64,000 bases of DNA. It comes from Octopus vulgaris (lineage: Eukaryota). The DNA lies in contig OX597838.1 in assembly GCA_951406725.2 (NCBI GenBank), positions 27,590,001-27,654,000 of the forward strand, read 5' to 3'. Positions 2,606-61,475 of this stretch are shown in pieces. Both the position numbers and the translations under genes were made by a program. Position 1 is the first letter of the stretch, and each line of letters begins with the position of its first letter. The notes under the pieces were generated by a model. It saw only the letters and a program-made list of their open reading frames with translations. It made no database searches and had not been told where the DNA came from.

Positions 2606-3668
2606 ACAATTTCCATGCAGTTTCTATGAGTCTGGCAGAATTTTCTACAACCAGATGCTCTTCCACTTGCCAACCCTTGCTTGCTTCCTACCAAAATAAT
2701 ATACACAAACACACAGACAATCTTTCAGTTTCTGGTTTGTACCTACCAAATGCACTCACAAGGCTTTGGTTGGCCCCAGGCTATAGTTGTAGACACTTGC
2801 TTATGGTTCTGTGCAGTAGAACTGAACCAAATACTTCATGGTTGGGAAGCAAGCTTATAATGACACAGCCACGACTATGCCTTTAATATTCACTATAAAT
2901 GTAAGTGATCTTTGCTCATGTTCCATGTGTCTATGTATTGGCTCAAGTACATCTTTTGGAGATGGCAAAAGTTTGCCAGCATTCCTCAACATATAAAGTT
3001 GAACGAAATGCCCTTAAAGATTTTGCCTGTTGTAGTAATGATTCTGCCAGTTCACTGCCTTACAGAGACCCCAATATTGGCTTGTCTTTTGTGTAGGTTT
3101 GAACCTTAGTTTTTCCAGTGTGCAGACGTTTTTATTGCTTGGAAAAGTGACTATGAAAATGATGACGGTGATGACAATGATGATATGTATTGACTTTCTG
3201 TATGCATGTCAGGTTGTTTTTTAACAAGTTTTATAAAGTTGTGTATATTTTAACAAATTGTAATGTTCAAGCTGGTTGTTTATATTGAATGCTTAACCAA
3301 GCATGTGTGTGTATGTGTGTGTGTGTGTTATTAACTTATATTTTTAATATGCTACATGTTTAACATACTGTATGTTTGACATGCTGTAAATTTAACAAGT
3401 TGTGTGTGTTTTCACAGGCTATCTATATTTTAGTTGTTTTGTCTCCGGGTCATTGCTGATTGAACATTCTTGCCATAATTCCCTTTCTTTTCTTTTTATA
3501 TTGGTTGTATACTGTCAATCTAACGTGAACGTGACAGTAGGGGGTTACACCACCGCTGTTTAGCCCTAGGAAGCATCGACGCTTCCTGCTGGCTTCGACA
3601 CATTTTTCCTGTGTCCTTATATACATTTACGAAGGGGAGACAAACACCCCCAGCAGCCAGGCCTGCAT

Positions 3669-3713
3669 CTAGAGACACGCATGTTTCAGGATCATTGTCC
3701 ATCATCGGTCTAG
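3669..3713 (-). ncRNA. Type I hammerhead ribozyme fold (U4C core variant)
   Basis: Minus strand: CUAGA-CCGAUGA-U-GGA caauga UCC-U-GAA-ACAU gc GUGU-C|UCUAG. Stems I, II and III all pair; GUC cleavage triplet. Confidence 0.8.
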
Positions 3714-4667
3714 GGTAGCAGACGCCCGCCAGCTGTTGATATCTGTCCCGATTCGCAAATGTATATATCTAATTTTCAGTGAAGTTTATTTGCTGATTAC
3801 CAAAATCAGAAATATGGCTCTTTTTATATTATTATATCCTTAATGCATCCACATCATGCAATGTCCTTTTTTTAAAAAAATGTTACAGTTCTATGGAGAC
3901 TCGACATCTGTTTGTAGCAGTAAATGTGACCACACAGAGGTTCTTTCATGGGATTAAAAGCTGTGTTTTTACAGGTTGTGCGTAGTGCTAAAGGGGTCAG
4001 TCAGGTGATGATAAACCAAGTCTGTTAGGTGGAATATAGTTCCTGCTGAGCTTTTTTTCTTCACTTCTATCTCATACTGAAGTTAAGAGGTGTGACCCAT
4101 TGGTCAGAATGTTGCACTCACAATCGCATGTAGTGGTTTCAATTCCTGACCCAGGCAGTATGTTGTGCTCTTCAACAAAACACTTCCTTTCACGTTAGTC
4201 TAGTCCTCACAGCTGTAAATGAGTGCTCTTGCAGTGGACCAACATCTTGTTTAGGGGCCATGTGTTGATGATCTCATTCACTTACACTCCATCGAAACCA
4301 GGTAACCAGCCTTGTGAGTCCTAAAGTAAAACAATGTAAAGTTACCTTCTCCAGTCACATCAGCTCATAAGGGCCAGTTTCCGTGGCGTATAAATTCCCT
4401 TCATGGACAGGATGCCAGTCCATCGTAGTATTACTTATGTTTGCCAGCTGAGTGGACTGGAGCAATCTGAAATGAAGTGCTTTGCTCAAAAACACAACAC
4501 GTTACCCAGTCCAGGAATCAAAACCACTATCTTATGATCATGAGTCCAGCACCCTAACCACTAAGCCATGTGCCTCCTCTATGAATGCTAAGACTTGAAA
4601 CAGTAATGTTCAGGGGTTGATGCTGTTGTAGCCATAATATCTCATACAGGTTCAAAATTTCCCTATT

Positions 4668-4711: not shown

Positions 4712-4762
4712 TAACAACAAACAAGATGAGGATAAATATCCATCAAATGTAAATAATGTGAA

Positions 4763-4938
4763 GGCGTAGGAGTGGCTGTGTAGTAAGTAGCTTGTTTACC
4801 AACCACATGGTTCTGGGTTCAGTCCCACTGCGTGGCACCTTGGGCAAGTGTCTTCTTCTATAGCTTCGGGCCGACCAAAGCCTTGTCAGTGGATTTGGTA
4901 GACAGAAACTCAAAGAAGCCCGTCGTATATATGTATGC

Positions 4939-4970
<32 letters not shown>

Positions 4971-5188
4971 TTGTGTCTGTGTTTGTCTCCCTAGCATTGC
5001 TTGACAACCAATGCTGGTGTGTTTATGTCCCCTTAACTTAGCGGTTCGGCAAAAGAGACCGATAGAATAAGTACTTGGCTTGCAAAGAATAAGTCCCGGG
5101 ATCGATTTGCTCGACTAAAGGCGGTGCTCCAGCATGGCCGCAGTCAAATGACTGAAACAAGTAAAAGAGTAAAGAGTAAAAAAGAGTA
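4763..5188 (+). mobile_element. tRNA-derived CORE-type SINE (family A), full length
   Basis: A-box TGGCTGTGTAG, B-box GGTTCAGTCC, CORE-like ACCTTGGGCAAGTG, internal (TA)/(TG) tract, 3' GGCGGTGCTCCAGCATGGCCGCAGTCAAATGACTGAAAC and (GTAAAAGA)n tail. Confidence 0.9.
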
Positions 5189-11571: not shown

Positions 11572-11815
11572 TTAAACTGGCTATATCCAGCCCAAATGTC
11601 TACTTGTTTGACCCTTTTGATACCAGCCCAGCTGAAACCACCTCTGACTCTGTAGTACAAATGTCTTGTTTTCAAAAGTTCTGAATTAAAATCTTCCACC
11701 AAACCTTAGTCATAATTTATGTTCCTAACACTAGCTTAATGATAATTAAGTTATTTTACTAAATTCTTTGTTATATTTAAAATTAATTCAAAGAGACATA
11801 GAACAAAGAAACATA

Positions 11816-11986
11816 GGCGCAGGAGTGGCTGTGTGGTAAGTAGCTTGCTTACCAACCATATGGTTCCGGGTTCAGTCCCACTGCGTGGCATCTTGGGCAA
11901 GTGTCTTCTGCTATAGCCCCGGGCCAACCATTACCTTATGAGTGGATTTGGTAGACGGAAACTGAAAGAAGCCTGTCGTATATATG

Positions 11987-12063
<77 letters not shown>

Positions 12064-12276
12064 ATGTTTGTGTGTCTGTGTTTGTCCCCCTAGCATTGCT
12101 TGACAACCGATGCTGGTGTGTTTACGTCCCCATCACTTAGCGGTTCGGCAAAAGCAACTGATAGAATAAGTACTGGGCTTACAAAGAATAAGTCCAGGGG
12201 TCGATTTGCTCGACTAAAGGCGGTGCTCCAGCATGGCCGCAGTCAAATGACTGAAACAAGTAAAAGAGTAAAAGAG
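11816..12276 (+). mobile_element. SINE family A, inserted in a TTAA MITE
   Basis: Full-length copy; the flanks continue MITE sequence. Confidence 0.9.
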
Positions 12277-15738: not shown

Positions 15739-16619
15739 GGGAGAGAGAGAGAGATTGATAGATGGAGAGATTAGTTATGGAGAGGATTAGAGAGAGTGAG
15801 CTAGGTAGATGGATAGATATACAGAGGGAGATAACGATAGAGAGTGGGCGATAGAGACAGAAAGTAGAGAGGGAGAGAGAGAGAGAATATGTCATCATAA
15901 ATTAGTATTATTTACATTACTGTGTTATCTTATTAAATAACTCTGTTTCAATATGGGGGCAGTGAAGGTGTAGAGGTGGTGGTTATGGTGGTGGGTGGGT
16001 GAAATAGTTGGGGATTTTTATCACTATCTGAATTGGCTGGTTGCTTACCACTTCCACTCATTCATCCACCCCTGCACCCACACGCTTTTTTCTCTCCGCT
16101 TCTCCTCATTGTCACCTGTACTGAGTCTGGGTTTTCTGCGCACCTGCACTCTTCCCACATCTGGTGACCATCATTCCTAATCCTTTCTCCCTGTGACACT
16201 GATCCCCTTATCATGAAATGTTCCCTTCCTGTAAAGATTCAAAGGTGGGGGAGAAATAGTTATAAGACTGCGACCCTACTGGGCCACCACCTTGAGGAAT
16301 CTTTTCTTTTAGTCAAATGAATTAATCCAGTACCTTTTTTTTTTAAAAGCTTGGTACTTATTCTATCAGTCTCTTTTGCTGAGCTGCTAGGTTTGATCAG
16401 CCTGAGGCGATAGTAGAAGGCACTTGCCCATGGTGGTGCACAGTGGGACCAAACCCAAAACCATGGGGTTGGGAAGCAAGCTTCTTACCCACACACAGCA
16501 GCCATGCCTGTGCATATTTCTGTATATATATATATAAATACGAATGTGTCTGTGTGTGTGTGCAGTGTATATATATAGTGTGTGAGTATGTATGTATATA
16601 TGTATATATATATATTATA

Positions 16620-17018
16620 GGCGCAGGAGTGGCTGTGGTAAGTAGCTTGCTTACCAACCACATGGTTCCGGGTTTAGTCCCACTGCGTGGCACCTTGGGC
16701 AAGTGTCTTCTGCTATAGCCTCGGGCAGACTATTACCTTGTGAGTGGATTTGGTAGACGGAAACTTAAAGAAGCCCGTCGTATATATGTATATATATATG
16801 TGTATGTTTGTGTGTCTGTGTTTGTCCCCCTAGCATTGCTTGACAACTGATGCTGGTGTGTTTATGTCCCTGTCACTTAGCGGTTCGGCAAAAGAGACCG
16901 ATAGAATAAGTACTGGGCTTACAAAGAATAAGTCCCGGGGTCGAGTTGCTCGATTAAAGGCGGTGCTCCAGCATGGCCGCAGTCAAATGACTGAAGCAAG
17001 CAAAAGAGTAAAAAGAGA
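16620..17018 (+). mobile_element. SINE family A
   Basis: Full-length copy. Confidence 0.9.
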
Positions 17019-18239: not shown

Positions 18240-18369
18240 TATGTTATTATATATTTGTATATCTTTGTTCTCTCTTCACTATGTTATATAGATATGTTAC
18301 AAATTGATTCGTGTTGTATATGTATTAATAAGTCGTCTTTCTGTTTGTCTTTGCAGGTGGACTAGCCAA

Positions 18370-18504
18370 ATGAAAATGGAGAAACTTAAGCGAAGCTTAA
18401 GCTTCCGCAAGAAAAAAGATCATGTCCCCGAGTGTTCTAAACCTCATCAATGGCTTGAGGACGAACGTAAAGTTCGGGAAGGGACATGTAGTTTTCAAGT
18501 GAAG
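18370..18504 (+). CDS. numb: Numb, first recognisable coding exon (exon 18357-18504; N-terminus and start of PTB domain)
   Basis: Translates [45 protein letters not shown], matching the conserved Numb N-terminus (LRxSFRxKKDxVPExSxPHQWxxDExxVRxGxCSFxVK). Acceptor tttgtctttgcag at 18344-18356; donor AAG|gtaaga at 18505, phase 0. Confidence 0.95.
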
Positions 18505-29379: not shown

Positions 29380-30075
29380 TGACACGTTACACTACAGCCC
29401 CACATATAGTCACACTAATCTATTCCTCTACATATAATCACAACTGTACACTGCAGTACTCCTCATGCAGTCACACAACACAGTGTACTCCTCCACTTAC
29501 AGTCACACTTGACTGTTGTCTCCACATAGTCACATACTACATGGTACCCCTCCACTTACAATCACACTTCACTGTAGTCTCCACATAGTCACATACTACA
29601 TGGTACCCCTCCACTTACAGTCACACTTCACTGTAGTCTCCACTTACAGTCACACTTCACTGTAGTCTCCGCATAGTCACATACTACATGGTACACCTCC
29701 ACTTACAGTCACACTTCACTGTAGTCTCCACATAGTCACATACTACATGGTACCCCTCCACTTACAGTCACACTTCACTGTAGTCTCCACATAGTCACAT
29801 ACTACATGGTACCCCTCCACTTACAGTCACACTTCACTGTAGTCTCCACATAGTCGCATACTACAATGGTACCCCTCCACATACAGTCACACACTACACT
29901 CTATCCTCCACATATAGTTGCACACTACACTATATTCCTCCATGTACAGTCACACTCTACACTTCGCTCTGCAATGCAGTCACACACCTCACTGTACCCT
30001 CCACATAGTCACACACTAGTGTATCCCCCCCCCACATACAATCACTAGACTTTACTCCTCCACACAGAGTCACTC
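29380..30075. repeat. Minisatellite with 59-bp higher-order unit (30+29-bp subunits)
   Basis: CTCCACATAGTCACATACTACATGGTACCC + CTCCACTTACAGTCACACTTCACTGTAGT; homogeneous core about 29490-29890 with degenerate edges. Confidence 0.9.
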
Positions 30076-46414: not shown

Positions 46415-48837
46415 AAATAAACTCCACCTTTTTTTTTATATCATTTGAAGTTGTATCTCTTTATTTTTAAAAGCATTTCCTTAAAACTGGTGAAGTGGGG
46501 TGGGATAAAAAATAAAATAAAAAAGACCTTCGGTTATTTATTCATTTCTTATCTGTCCCCATTGTTTTGGATCTTTCTCATCTTCTTTGTTTTATGTGAT
46601 AGATGAGAAAGAGTGAGAGAGCTGAGATCTTTCTAGAATAGTTACGTTGTGTTGGTTATATATTGGGCATTGGTAACAGTTTGGGTGGTGGTGGTGGTGG
46701 TTGTGTGCTAAGTTGATAATGGATCGATGCATTTAAAAAAAAAATGCTGTGAGGTTAGTAACCTCACAGAATAAATGGCACTCCCCGCTCTTACTGCTGC
46801 CAGCCACCCTATGCCCAAATATGGAATAAATGGACAGCAAGAAATTTTTGAAGTCTTAAAAAAAGAAACTTTCAAATGGTGTTGGGCTGGAATGGAACAG
46901 AATGAAATGCAATGAGGTGGAATCAGATCAAGAAAGAAACATGTGCAGTGATGCATTTCAACTACTGCAGTTGTAGTGAAGCCAGAACAAGTTTGAATAA
47001 GTTCAAGTTAGTTTTTATAGTGATCATAATATGAAAAGATAGACGTAACTCTTGTACTGTAGAACTAAAAGTAAAGTTTTATGGGAGAGGGAAGCTTAGT
47101 TCCTCTTCAATGGTAGTTAGTTCCTTACTGCCTACAGTTCTATTGTAGTGCCTTTAATTCTATAGTGGTATTTGGCCGTTGCCAGCCTCGCCTGGCCCCC
47201 GTGCCGGTGGCACGTAAAAAGGCACCATCCGTTCGTGGCCGTTGCCAGTGCCACCCTGACTGGCCTCGTGCCGGTGGCACGTAAAAAGCACCAACCGTTT
47301 GTGGCCGTTTGCCAGCTCCGTCTGGCACCTGTGCGGGTGGCACGTAAAAAGCACCCACTACACTCACGGAGTGGTTGGCGTTAGGAAGGGCATCCAGCCG
47401 TAGAAACACTGCCAGATCTGACTGGCCTGATGCAGCCTTCTGGCTTCACAGACCCCAGTTGAACCGTCCAACCCATGCTAGCATGGAAAGCAGACGCTAA
47501 ATGATGATGATGATGATGATGATGATGTATCTGCTATATTATAGTACTACCTTTAGTTCTATATGGTGGCGAGCTGGCAGAAACGTTAGCACACCGGGCA
47601 AAATACATAGCCGTATTTCGTCTGTCGTTACGTTCTGAGTTCAAATTTCGCCGAGGTCGACTTTGCCTTTCATCCTTTCGGGGTTAATAAATAAAGTACC
47701 AGTTTCGCACTGGGGTCGATGTAATCGACTTAATCCCTTTGTCTGTCCTTGTTTGTCCCCTCTATGTTTAGCCCCTTGTGGGCAGTAAAGAAATATATTA
47801 TCTACAGTTCCACTGTACCCCACAGTTGTTTAATACCTACCTACATTTCCATGCTGTCTTTTGAGGAATATGGATTTACTAGGAGAAGAGGATTCCCAGT
47901 CCCCTCCCATGCTCCTGCCCCTTTTAGTCACCTCTTACGCCACACAGGGAATACGGGGACTGCATTCTACCGATTCCCTGGTCGCAGGGAAGTTTGCTAG
48001 TTAACCAATAGCTGGGACCCTTACAGGTGCTACCACTCTGGGCCTGGGTAAACCTGGGAACAATAGTGGCTAAGAGGTGGTTCCACACTCCTCAAACCCT
48101 GAAACCAGGGCCCAAGGGTCCCACTACGGATGTAGTTTACAGACATTCCGAGGACTGAGCTGGAAAATGAATGGAATACCTGGTATGCATCTTGTTGTGG
48201 CTACCTCCTCCTAAAAAAATTGGGGATACAGTCTGGGTATGTATATATATATATATATATATATATCCATAGAACTACCTATAGTTCCACAGTGGTACAT
48301 ACACCTACAGTTCCACTGTACCACATAAGTTCCGTAAAACCTACCTACTGTTCTGTACCTTGGTACTACCTGTAGTTCCATAATACCATGTACAGCTCTA
48401 TAGTACCACCCACTGCTCCATTGTGGTACCTCTAGATACATTGTGGGGCCTAATGTTCTACAGTATCAGCTACAGTCTCACAGTGGTACATGCAATTTCT
48501 TGGTACTCACCTACAGTTAGATGGTATTACAGCCACTAAAAGCTAAATGTTTTGGCCATGGGCTCATTGCAGAGCGTACCGTCAATTATGTCAACACTTT
48601 ATTTCATACAATGAAAGCAAGACGAAGTTGACACAATGTAGGGGTAGTTTTGAAATCGGAAAGTAAAGTAACATAACTCAATGCTATGTGGCATTTTGTT
48701 TGCTGCTAAATTTTGAATATTACTATAACATTGTGAATTAATCGATGAAACTGTTCTCACTTCCTTCTCCATCCAGTGCTTGACGTAAATAATATTTTAT
48801 TTTAGTGACCAAACTCAAACTTCAGCAGGTGCAAGAT

Positions 48838-49215
48838 CAACCCCCACCTGGCCCGGAGTCCATCCCACCTGGTCCAGAGTCCACTCCACCAGGTCCAGGG
48901 TCCACTCCACCAGGTCCAGGGTCCACCCCACCAGGTCCGGAGTCCACCCCACCAGGTCCAGAGTCCACCCCACCAGGTCTGGAGTCCACCCCACCAGGTC
49001 TAGAGTCCACCCCACCAGGTCCTGGAGTCCACCCCACCAAGTCCAGAGTCTACCCCACCAGGTCCCGCGTTCACCCCACCTGGCCTGGAGTCCACCCACC
49101 TAACCCGTAGTCCACCCCCACCTAGCCTGGAGTCAACCCCACCAGGCCCCAATTCCACCCCACCTGGCCCAGAGTCCACCCCAACAGGCCTAGAGTCTAC
49201 CTCAGCAAACCCAAA
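48838..49215. repeat. 21-bp C-rich minisatellite
   Basis: CCAGGTCCAGAGTCCACCCCA units, about 17 copies, degenerating 3'. Confidence 0.9.
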
Positions 49216-49881
49216 GTCAATCCCTATGGACCAAAATCAAAACCAAGGCCAACGTCAACCCAAGCATGTTTTGAACTCTTTCAATCAATATTGTTAAAAA
49301 TCAAACCCACCACCACCACCAACACCCCTTTACCTTTGTGTCATTTTAATTTGATGTTTATTATGAAGGGTTACATTTTTTTTTTCTCTTTTTTTTTTTT
49401 TTTTTCCTATCTCATCATACAATTGTAATTGTGAACTTGTGTCTATTTCTTGGAACTAATCTTATCATACTCTGTGGGGAAACCACATTTGAGAATCCTA
49501 AAACATGATTTTGGATCTCTCTTCTTCTTTCTTTCATTCTTAACCACTTAAATATTTTTCTCCATCTGTATACAGAAATCAAATTGTTTTATTTTTCTTT
49601 CCCTAATAATTCTTTAGCTTTTTTATAATAATTTATTTTTTCTATGAATTTTCTAATTTGGAAGAAAGTTGTAAAATCCAAACCTAAATATGTTGGGAAA
49701 TCACTTAAAACTGGCTTCATTTAAATTACCAACATCTCCATTCAGTTTGTTTCCCCACTCAGTTTCTCCTCCTCCTACACCAATTAATTCCCCTTCCTCT
49801 TACCTCCACCCATTTTCATTCTTCTTTACCACCAATCTCAGTCTGTCTTTAGTCTTAACACTTTTGTCTTCTATTTTTCAG

Positions 49882-49956
49882 TATTTGGGCTGTATAGAAG
49901 TTTATGAATCGCGAGGTATGCAGGTCTGTGAGGAAGCAGTAAAATCTTTGAAATAT
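49882..49956 (+). CDS. numb: Numb PTB-domain exon (75 nt)
   Basis: YLGCIEVYESRGMQVCEEAVKSLKY, the Numb PTB motif YLGxVEVxESRGMxxCExAxKxL. Acceptor ctatttttcag ending 49881; donor gtaagt at 49957. Phase 0/0, in frame with the previous exon. Confidence 0.95.
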
Positions 49957-52540: not shown

Positions 52541-52690
52541 AACCATGTTTAATTACACATCTTAGAATAGATATTTCTACCAAAATGGAGTTTCAGGTAC
52601 TCAAGGAATGAACATTCTCTTTGCTGCATTAAGTGAATAAATGCATTGTGACAGTCTCTTTATGGTGACCTGCGGTAGACAGCATCGTGT

Positions 52691-53050
52691 TGGTGTTCCA
52701 CCAGCCTTGATACCTAGTCTACATGTTCTCTGGTGTTCCACCAGCCTTGATACCTAGTCTACATGTTCTCTGGTGTTCCACCAGCCTTGATACCTAGTCT
52801 ACATGTTCTCTGGTGTTCCACCAGCCTTGATACCTAGTCTACATGTTCTCTGGTGTTCCACCAGCCTTGATACCTAGTCTACATGTTCTCTGGTGTTCCA
52901 CCAGCCTTGATACCTAGTCTACATGTTCTCTGGTGTTCCACCAGCCTTGATACCTAGTCTACATGTTCTCTGGTGTTCCACCAGCCTTGATACCTAGTCT
53001 ACATGTTCTCTGGTGTTCCACCAGCCTTGATACCTAGTCTCCATGTTCTC
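52691..53050. repeat. 40-bp tandem repeat x9
   Basis: TGGTGTTCCACCAGCCTTGATACCTAGTCTACATGTTCTC: eight identical units plus one with a single A>C difference; no spacers. Confidence 0.97.
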
Positions 53051-53646
53051 GATGTCTTGGTTGAATCTTTCTCCTTGGTCATCACTTATTGCCTGATGAT
53101 TTTGAAAGAAATAGTTCAGATGGCAGTGCAGGAAATGCACATTTACACACATGTTGCAGCCCAGTGCTTCGAAAACTGCTTAAAAGGATCTGCACGAGAT
53201 CTTCATAATTTGATGACTTCCAGTTTCCCAGGAAATCAGATACAACTGCAGCAGAAGCATCCTGTGATTCTATTTCGATGCCAGACATGGTCTCCAAAAA
53301 ATAGCTCATCCGGAAATAGCCACCAATTACGTGGCCCATTAAAACATACCAACCGTAATTTTCTCAAGACAAAACTGGAAACTTTCTGCTTAAGCATTTG
53401 AAGCAGTCTCCGTTTCAATGTTTCAACACATGTTTTACCCACTATATGGGGTGCCCAGGTTTTGTCTTGTCAGTAAGCTTTCTTCACAAAATCTGTGATT
53501 ATATTTCACTGCCTAATCCAGAAATAAGCAGAAGTCATCAGGACCGTTTTAACATTCTCTTCTCTCACAACTTGCTATATTTCTGAAACACAAAACGTAT
53601 TCAAGCCAGCTGTCACCTGGGTAAAGTATTTTCAGAATAGTCCATA

Positions 53647-59938: not shown

Positions 59939-60510
59939 TTTGTATATATGTATGTATACATATATAGTCATATATATAAACATACACACATTGCATATGT
60001 GTGTGCAGGTTTGTGTGAGTGTGTATATATAAATAGATATATATGTATATATGTATTCATATGAAAGCTTAATAGTGTATATAGCTTTTCTTGTTGGGTT
60101 TTCTTGTCGTCTAGATTTAGAAAATGGGGTATTGATTTCTGGTATATGCAAATGGTCTGAAGTGTATATACATATGGAGAGAGAGAGAGAGAGAATGAGA
60201 AGGAATAAGAGATACAGCAAATGAGGGGGTGGGGAAGAAAGAATGAAAGAGATAGAGAATGAGATTATGTGGCATTAAAACTCTTCTCAAGGACATGAAC
60301 CAAAGTTAAATGATGTGAATTGTTCCAACGAGGAATCAAAATTAGATCGCACTGACTTAGCTCACCGAGCAAGCTTACTTCAACTCTGTTACATTTAACT
60401 TGAGAAAGGAAATTTTTTTCATTCTGTTTTTTTTTTTTTTTCTGTTTTTCTTTTTTCTCTTTTCATCAAATTTTTACTACAAAGTATTGTTATGTAATTA
60501 TTCTTTTTAA

Positions 60511-61475
60511 GGCGGCAAGCTGGCAGAAACGCTAGCGCGCCGGGCGAAATGCTTAGCGGTATTTTGTCTGTCGTTATGTTCTGAGTTCAAATTCCGCCAT
60601 GGTCGACTTTGCCTTTCATCCTTTCGGGGTCGATAAATAAAGTACCAGTTACACACTGGGGTCGATGTAATCGACTTAATCCGTTTGTCTGTCCTTGTTT
60701 GTCCTCTCTGTGTTTAGCCCCTTGTGGGTAGTAAAGAAATAGGTATTTCGTCTGTCATTACGTTCTGAGTTCAAATTCCGCCGAAGTCGACTTTGCCTTT
60801 CATCCTTTCGGGGTCAATAAATAAAGTACCAGTCACACACTGGGGTCTATGTAATCGACTTAATCCGTTTGTCTGTCCTTGTTTGTCCTCTCTATGTTTA
60901 GCCCCTTGTGGGTAGTAAAGAAATAGGTATTTCGTCTGTCGTTATGTTCTGAGTTCAAATTCCACCAAGGTCGACTTGCCTTTCATCCTTTCGGGGTCGA
61001 TAAATAGAAGTACCAGTTACACACTGGGGTCGATGTCATCAACTTAATCCCTTTGTCTGTCCTTGTTTGTCCCCTCTATGTTTAGCCCCTTGTGGGTAGT
61101 AAAGAAATAGGTATATCGTCTGTCATTATGTTCTGAGTTCAAATTCCACCAAGGTCGACTTGCCTTTCATCCTTTCGGGGTCGATAAATGAAGTACCAGT
61201 TACACACTGGGGTCGATGTCATCAACTTAATCCCTTTGTCTGTCCTTGTTTGTCCTCTCTATGTTTAGCCCCTTGTGGGTAGTAAAGAAATAGGTATTTC
61301 GTCTGTCATTATGTTCTGAGTTCAAATTCCACCAAGGTCGACTTGCCTTTCATCCTTTCGGGGTCGATAAATGAAGTACCAGTTACACACTGGGGTCGAT
61401 GTCATCAACTTAATCCCTTTGTCTGTCCTTATTTGTCCCCTCTATGTTTAGCCCCTTGTGGGCAGTAAAGAAATA
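60511..61475 (+). repeat. Family B SINE with body tandemly repeated five times (183-184-bp unit)
   Basis: Units start GGTAT at 60558, 60742, 60926, 61110 and 61293; only the first has the A-box head. Confidence 0.92.

Follow-up and report, generated by a model that had tools for sequence, protein, structure and literature searches.

A truncated retrozyme copy with an altered hammerhead core in a numb intron of Octopus vulgaris, and its probable link to Penelope-like elements

The element and its setting

The window, a stretch of 64,000 nucleotides from Octopus vulgaris contig OX597838.1, carries part of the gene numb on its plus strand and a short retrozyme-type repeat on its minus strand. 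Spliced contigs place the first coding exon of numb, outside the element, at 18357-18504; another coding exon lies near 49,900, and the NumbF domain is encoded further downstream on the same contig and strand. In contigs from all four runs, splicing joins the first coding exon to G000:C25:27285455-27285480, an exon that lies upstream of the element by 308 kb. The element therefore sits antisense within a numb intron of ~320 kb. This 5' intron occupies G000:C25:27285480-27608357, and ~31 kb separate the next two coding exons. The initial annotation, which had described the element as antisense to numb, is thus borne out as to position. Given this orientation, numb pre-mRNA carries only the reverse complement of the element and not the ribozyme. 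The position looks incidental, the element is likely without effect on numb, and for that gene the finding is probably of no consequence.

The element spans 3502-3815 of the minus strand (314 nt). A search of the octopus genome itself returned 1,925 candidates, and all 40 that were scored align at 93-97%, ending at 3815 and 3502. These limits replace the bounds of 3521-3767 given previously. The length of ~250 nt first proposed must likewise be revised, as four arrays have periods of 364-368 nt and the full unit is thus ~365 nt. From these tandem periods it follows that the window copy, formerly taken for a monomer, is a 5'-truncated piece of a ~365-nt unit, and circles of ~250 nt are therefore not expected. 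Sequence and coordinates identify a 12-bp target-site duplication, with its upstream copy at 3819-3830 and its downstream copy at 3491-3502 of the same strand, the first base of the latter being common with the 3' end of the element. Three extra bases (3816-3818) lie on the 5' side between the upstream copy and the element. Only stop-to-stop frames of at most 82 aa cross the element.

Several parts can be assigned along the minus strand. A TATA-like box at 3762-3767, recognized by its sequence, marks a putative promoter; inserts of an ORF1-only element, described below, begin 20-30 nt downstream of such boxes. Transcription would start at 3737-3741, where the flanking direct repeats of the ORF1-only insert begin in other copies, and insertion at this likely start site lends indirect support to the placement of the promoter. 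The type I hammerhead (3668-3717) forms the tip of a long rod (3618-3767), whose outer helices need sequence upstream of the putative start and so would form only in multimers or circles. Three hairpins (3615-3597, 3594-3562 and 3537-3512) make up a 3' domain (3512-3615) just upstream of a fixed 3' end, designated A, and this domain is a candidate recognition region for a borrowed reverse transcriptase. The 3' end of the window element corresponds to end A, where reverse transcription probably begins. Pair-breaking changes private to the window copy occur at 3714, 3792 and 3791. With a single hammerhead, and with ~50 nt of the unit absent, this copy can release no monomer by itself and is best read as a dead-end insertion.

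The window is rich in other repeats. Two abundant SINE-like repeats occur in many copies, at 4762-5176, 11815-12275, 16617-17015 and 60508-61475 among others, one of them forming a 184-bp tandem run at 60508-61475. Minisatellites lie at 29410-29927, 48816-49245 and 52651-53130, and 1481-2147 holds the 3' fragment of a LINE-like sequence with three tandem repeats of ~93 bp after it.

Hammerhead fold and its comparative support

Every helix named in the initial annotation is present in the sequence, and the hammerhead parts and predicted cut lie where it had placed them. Stem I pairs 3713-3709 with 3673-3669, next to a loop-1 UAC at 3717-3715; position 4 of the core CCGAUGA (3708-3702) is a C, at 3707; stem II extends over 3701-3688 with a U-U at its base, followed by GAAA at 3687-3684; and a palindromic stem III at 3684-3675 leads to the predicted cut at 3674/3673, after GUC. 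Against the consensus core (C3 U4 G5 A6 N7 G8 A9, G12 A13 A14 A15, U16 H17), the only departure is C in place of U4; relatives have the complete consensus. The choice of the minus strand as the folded one also stands, 3521-3767 having a predicted energy of -100.6 kcal/mol (z -5.6) against -86.3 kcal/mol (z -4.3) for the plus strand. Some details hold for the window copy more than for its family. The UACC/AU internal loop is real here but results from the private change at 3714, a pairing base being present in 20 of 21 close copies, and the U-U at the base of stem II is a minority state (7/21, against A-U in 13/21). Stem III, described as one change short of a perfect palindrome, is fully self-complementary as RNA once G-U is allowed, with 10 of 10 pairs (-12.5 kcal/mol).

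The minimum-energy fold of the window copy is inactive, with the core paired to stem III, and the active fold lies 5.2 kcal/mol higher in a nearest-neighbour model that excludes tertiary contacts. Folded by itself, the 74-nt hammerhead region gains no stability over shuffled sequences (z -0.74), and an Rfam scan of the window copy returned no hammerhead match at E<=5. For these reasons comparative support is needed. Among 12 related loci scanned, one, from a sister family, matches RF02275 (Hammerhead_HH9) with 35.2 bits, short of the 52 bits required for gathering. Covariation over 21 sequences is extensive: both sides have changed in 17 of the 19 hammerhead pairs, C3-G8 exchanges with U3-A8, and 91.5% of cells in the alignment are paired. 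The covariation score is 0.67, compared with at most 0.15 for slid controls, and none of 500 shuffles reaches it; as the 21 rows are related and were picked by a hammerhead-like pattern, these numbers lean upward. The fold accordingly has three helices with covariation support and its ends in stem I, as in type I hammerheads. Across 16 copies of the rod, double changes affect 13 of 74 consensus pairs. Exchanges between A-U, G-U and G-C at several pairs suggest that it is RNA of the minus strand that pairs.

Folded as circles, five natural monomers are predicted to be 62-67% paired, with z scores of -5.3 to -10.1 on the minus-type strand and -3.1 to -7.6 on the opposite one (5/5). In each of four natural dimers, a double hammerhead formed through the stem III palindromes is predicted 0-6 kcal/mol from the minimum, and two separate single hammerheads 9-15 kcal/mol above it. 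Sequence comparison and folding models thus favor the proposal of a type I hammerhead on the minus strand whose palindromic stem III would suit dimer cleavage. As other identities, SECIS, C/D snoRNA, SRP and telomerase RNA were rejected, there being no supporting Rfam match and the element being a mobile repeat.

A retrozyme family and its probable mode of insertion

The exact hammerhead pattern of the window lineage has 218 matches in the genome and none in the control, so that, with 17 of 19 pairs covarying, this is not the single-copy sequence lacking covariation for which the initial annotation had allowed. The repeat is present in hundreds of copies genome-wide, and of the dispersed or tandem copies that had been looked for, both kinds occur. 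Related families were reached via flanks and wider hammerhead patterns. Tandem periods are 363-368 nt in the window lineage and 360 and 342 nt in sister families, with one hammerhead per unit, each within a self-paired rod. The units have no coding capacity and no apparent LTR layout, and the ORF found in long copies belongs to a separate insert. Contigs assembled from three presumed RNA runs cover the element and not its flanks, but a high-copy repeat gives such cover passively, and it speaks neither for nor against expression; runs coded A, B and C contain the family, and one contig extends only 30 letters past the 5' junction, too few to count. The most homogeneous retrozyme family seen (L261, L193-L221 and L012:1900-2400) has 360-bp units in arrays of up to nine and a U4C core. 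Sister families with a U3-A8 core pair occur at L078, L081, L084, L090, L100, L106, L111 and L125; the core at L111 has U3 with G8.

In these respects, the window element belongs to a non-LTR retrozyme family with a predicted type I hammerhead. As in the metazoan retrozymes of PMC7229834 (mussel, ~350-390 bp; axolotl, 330/350 bp), the hammerhead is of type I and occurs once per unit, tandem units fall within 150-450 bp, although the window copy is itself a sub-monomer, and GC content is below 50% (0.41-0.44 here). Further likenesses to that report are a duplication of more than 4 bp (12 bp at the window copy), a highly self-paired predicted circle in 5/5 monomers, a short palindromic stem III and the U-U at the base of stem II, shared with axolotl HHR_Amex2. 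In contrast, the core is CCGAUGA here and CUGAUGA there, and arrays here are short, with most copies dispersed. Expression, cleavage and circles were shown in PMC7229834; the present evidence is at the level of sequence and includes a map of Penelope-type insertion footprints. Literature on octopus or cephalopod hammerheads, retrozymes, ribozymes and U4C yielded no description of these families; they, or the U4C variant, may be listed in supplements to PMC7229834, PMC4209133 and the 2026 preprint or in repeat libraries such as Repbase or Dfam. The window family therefore appears to be an undescribed variant, with an altered core, of a known kind of retrozyme.

Insertion mode was surveyed at 56 loci fetched by the element alone, of which 49 were kept after seven duplicates were dropped. 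An inverted 5' piece is found in 25 of these 49, and (TA)3 or more adjoins 33 of 76 free 3' ends. The 3' ends cluster at two sites ~55 nt apart, A at 166-179 nt and B at 221-237 nt after the cut. For end pairs, L048 was left out, its inverted part being a second element, and two of the three ends of L014 were taken. Of the resulting 24 inverted loci, 16 have end A at one extremity and end B at the other, none has A+A, two have B+B, and six have a non-standard end. With equal use of A and B assumed, A+B in 16 of 18 corresponds to p ~0.0007 (binomial, one-sided). Inverted pieces, (TA)n targets and A+B end pairs match features described for Penelope-like elements, which are reported to leave partial tandems, an inverted 5' copy and a tail and to target microsatellites (10.1101/2021.04.23.441226). 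For an anole Penelope-like element, both DNA strands are reported to be cut and extended, and the tail is defined by two internal start sites of reverse transcription (PMC11167929). Thus partial tandems, an inverted 5'-truncated piece, two fixed 3' ends and AT-rich or (TA)n targets are all common to the retrozyme and to the elements of those two reports.

The genome also holds intact elements with reverse transcriptase and GIY-YIG domains, hammerheads and (TA)n ends. Those local Penelope-like copies that were read have two 3' ends, and a zinc-finger-like motif precedes the endonuclease, a feature of the Neptune and Nematis clades (10.1101/2021.04.23.441226). Two young families are of note in their own right. 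At L276 and L277 (G000:C1), tandem 4,271-bp Penelope-like units, 99.8-100% identical, carry overlapping frames of 454 and 775 aa and a U4C hammerhead. In a second (L172-L179), a 781-aa RT/GIY-YIG frame lies behind an overlapping upstream frame, and the terminal repeat holds a minimal U3-A8 hammerhead. The retrozyme itself has no ORF with both domains. BLAST found no sequence link between it and 50 GIY-YIG loci (150 of 6,136 GIY-YIG candidates scored) or the 4,271-bp unit, and homology to a pLTR of a local element was likewise absent among these. For this reason the vehicle is inferred from footprints. Like the pLTRs of Penelope-like elements (PMC4209133, PMC11167929, 10.1101/2021.04.23.441226), the retrozyme has a hammerhead shortly after a TATA-like promoter and U3-A8 variants in sister families. 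It differs from them in the tail, ~55 nt against 30-40 nt, and in a hammerhead of canonical shape (6-bp stem I, loop-1/loop-2 motifs), that of pLTRs being minimal. Dimer-type hammerheads are also known in Penelope-like elements (PMC4209133, PMC6765202).

Taken together, the evidence supports the initial proposal of small non-LTR retrozymes with a link to Penelope-like elements, and we consider it probable that the window element is a truncated, dispersed retrozyme copy brought in, as is likely, by the enzymes of a Penelope-like retrotransposon. A TATA-type promoter in one unit would drive transcription through the units that follow. Two neighboring hammerheads would pair through their palindromic stem III and, because U4C weakens the core, are predicted to cut slowly, and the cut pieces may be ligated into circles. 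To judge by the footprints, a Penelope-type protein would cut AT-rich DNA and start reverse transcription inside the RNA at either of the two sites ~55 nt apart, often once per DNA strand, giving inverted and longer-than-unit insertions. Synthesis of the window copy would have begun at site A and broken off 314 nt further on. Such movement was proposed from coexistence in PMC7229834. For Xenopus, where monomers, dimers and multimers likewise occur beside Penelope-like elements and many copies are intronic, the link is argued from pLTR homology in 24 of 57 families (preprint 10.64898/2026.07.22.740005), and not, as here, from insertion footprints without homology. As to how animal retrozymes move, the footprint at these insertions, with two starts and two strands, is the one that a Penelope protein is reported to leave in vitro, and it occurs here in the absence of sequence similarity. 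Candidate enzymes are intact in this genome, which makes the idea directly testable.

Core variation, rival readings and an ORF1-only passenger

With a shared context pattern, C4 cores return 1,928 matches (4 in the control) and canonical cores 1,314 (13 in the control), tandem units being counted singly. Within the window lineage, C stands at position 4 in 88 of the 100 matches listed out of 218, by hand count. A midpoint-rooted tree of 110 rows (147 extracted, 3 without a homologue dropped, 34 near-identical thinned) places the window C4 lineage within the canonical families and shows T copies scattered through that lineage. T copies in the close subfamily fit CpG decay, at 2/21 against 0-3/21 at other CpG cytosines. 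Since T is no more or less frequent than at those sites, U4C as a product of decay was rejected, and the view of U4C as damage to the window copy gives way to one of C4 as the normal state of its family. Another family with C4 branches off far from the first and has arrays of up to nine units that are 99.4-100% alike within the array examined. A single origin of C4 is rejected (p-AU 0.003; 0.0002 without core columns) on 30 hand-picked rows, with the group named after the first tree had been seen. U4C recurs in a Penelope-like family of unrelated sequence, whose hammerhead pattern has 1,559 matches, with C in 76 and T in 24 of the 100 listed (hand count); its intact tandem units, 99.8-100% identical, are all C, and T may here be decay rather than the ancestral state.

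According to the account in PMC3088659, U4C is a tolerated natural variant that lowers activity considerably in vitro yet suffices for a viroid to be infectious in vivo, and among mismatches U-U at 10.1-11.1 is tolerated best. What is a rare natural variant in the viroid prevails here in several genomic families, where more than 1,900 matches carry it. One tentative reading, which we hold to be possible rather than probable, is that U4C was favored at least three separate times in the Penelope system of this genome, a slowed hammerhead leaving more usable template. Under that tentative reading, the events might be two retrozyme lineages and one autonomous element, and the template could consist of uncut multimers or stable circles. 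If it is true, throttling the ribozyme has repeatedly brought these elements success, and searches based on the standard core, which would be expected to miss C4 families, miss most young copies. Natural C4, U4 and U3-A8 families of differing ages allow one to ask whether cleavage rate matters for spread.

Against the preferred reading of a Penelope-borne retrozyme with predicted slow cleavage stand the lack of a sequence link to any Penelope-like locus examined, the negative Rfam scan and inactive minimum-energy fold of the window copy, the loss of activity reported for U4C, and the finding that 8 of 9 predicted Xenopus dimers were without cleavage (10.64898/2026.07.22.740005). The same vehicle could carry a silent ribozyme, a U4C hammerhead without a useful cutting rate, vestigial or purely structural, in a Penelope-dependent SINE-like repeat that spread from uncut linear multimers. 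The anole element is in line with this, as cleavage is dispensable for its insertion in vitro and no RNA ends were mapped at the cut site (PMC11167929); C4 cores dominate the most homogeneous families, and tandem arrays provide longer-than-unit templates without circles. However, stem I has changed on both sides within the C4 lineage (A-U to G-C), as has stem II, and stem III stayed palindromic despite a change in length, while U4C was enough for the viroid in vivo. As the helices kept covarying inside the C4 lineage, slow dimer cleavage is placed above silence, which we regard as unlikely.

Two further explanations carry still less weight. The repeat might be only the terminal repeat of an autonomous Penelope-like element, with the copies as its 5'-truncated insertions; the layout of promoter, hammerhead and two ends is the same as in local pLTRs, Xenopus retrozymes are homologous to pLTRs (10.64898/2026.07.22.740005), and 150 of the 6,136 GIY-YIG candidates were scored. 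Yet what lies upstream of the hammerhead in the copies is further sequence of the 365-nt unit or the ORF1-only insert, a sister family has pure arrays, up to nine units long, without an ORF, and the Penelope-like loci examined show no similarity, which together make this quite improbable. That the window copy is a regulatory RNA for numb, as an antisense transcript or a locus-acting ribozyme, is hardly credible: it does lie antisense in a numb intron and keeps its TATA-like box and inferred start, but it is one among hundreds of copies alike at 93-97%, carries its own pair-breaking changes, and is ~14.5 kb from the nearest mapped numb exon, with no hammerhead on the numb strand.

Some retrozyme copies, ~2 kb long, hold a 1.65-kb insert with a 450-aa ORF. 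A protein-coding retrozyme was rejected as the explanation, since the ORF1-like gene has its own flanking duplications (~10-17 bp), copies 94-95% identical have distinct host repeats, and hammerheads are absent from some of its sites. The insert is a separate element that piles up in tandem; its starts lie past TATA-like boxes, both in several families with hammerheads and in further repeats. Over 186 residues, its protein shares 34% identity with the ORF1 product of a complete LINE that also encodes endonuclease and reverse transcriptase. A protein search gave no match among 7,993 scored candidates, Pfam gave only a sub-threshold zinc knuckle, and a single-sequence fold was unusable (pLDDT 37.5). 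A resemblance to RNA-binding CCHC proteins is a lead only. ORF1-only LINEs are known, for example HAL1 and HeT-A (PMC5786205). At least 150 matches to this ORF1-only retroelement (450 aa, zinc knuckle) exist in G000, including L057:1850-3505, L082:1619-2968, L078, L079, L081, L122 and L123, sometimes with a short 5' tag from a previous host (L113, L139). Downstream of ORF1 arrays at L127 and L136 lies a repeat, 94% alike between the two loci and also an insertion site, in which a scan found no hammerhead. The complete LINE with the related ORF1 (ORF1, endonuclease, reverse transcriptase and zf-RVT; L254:204-4658, minus strand) is situated immediately downstream of one such ORF1-only array and may serve the ORF1-only element as a helper.
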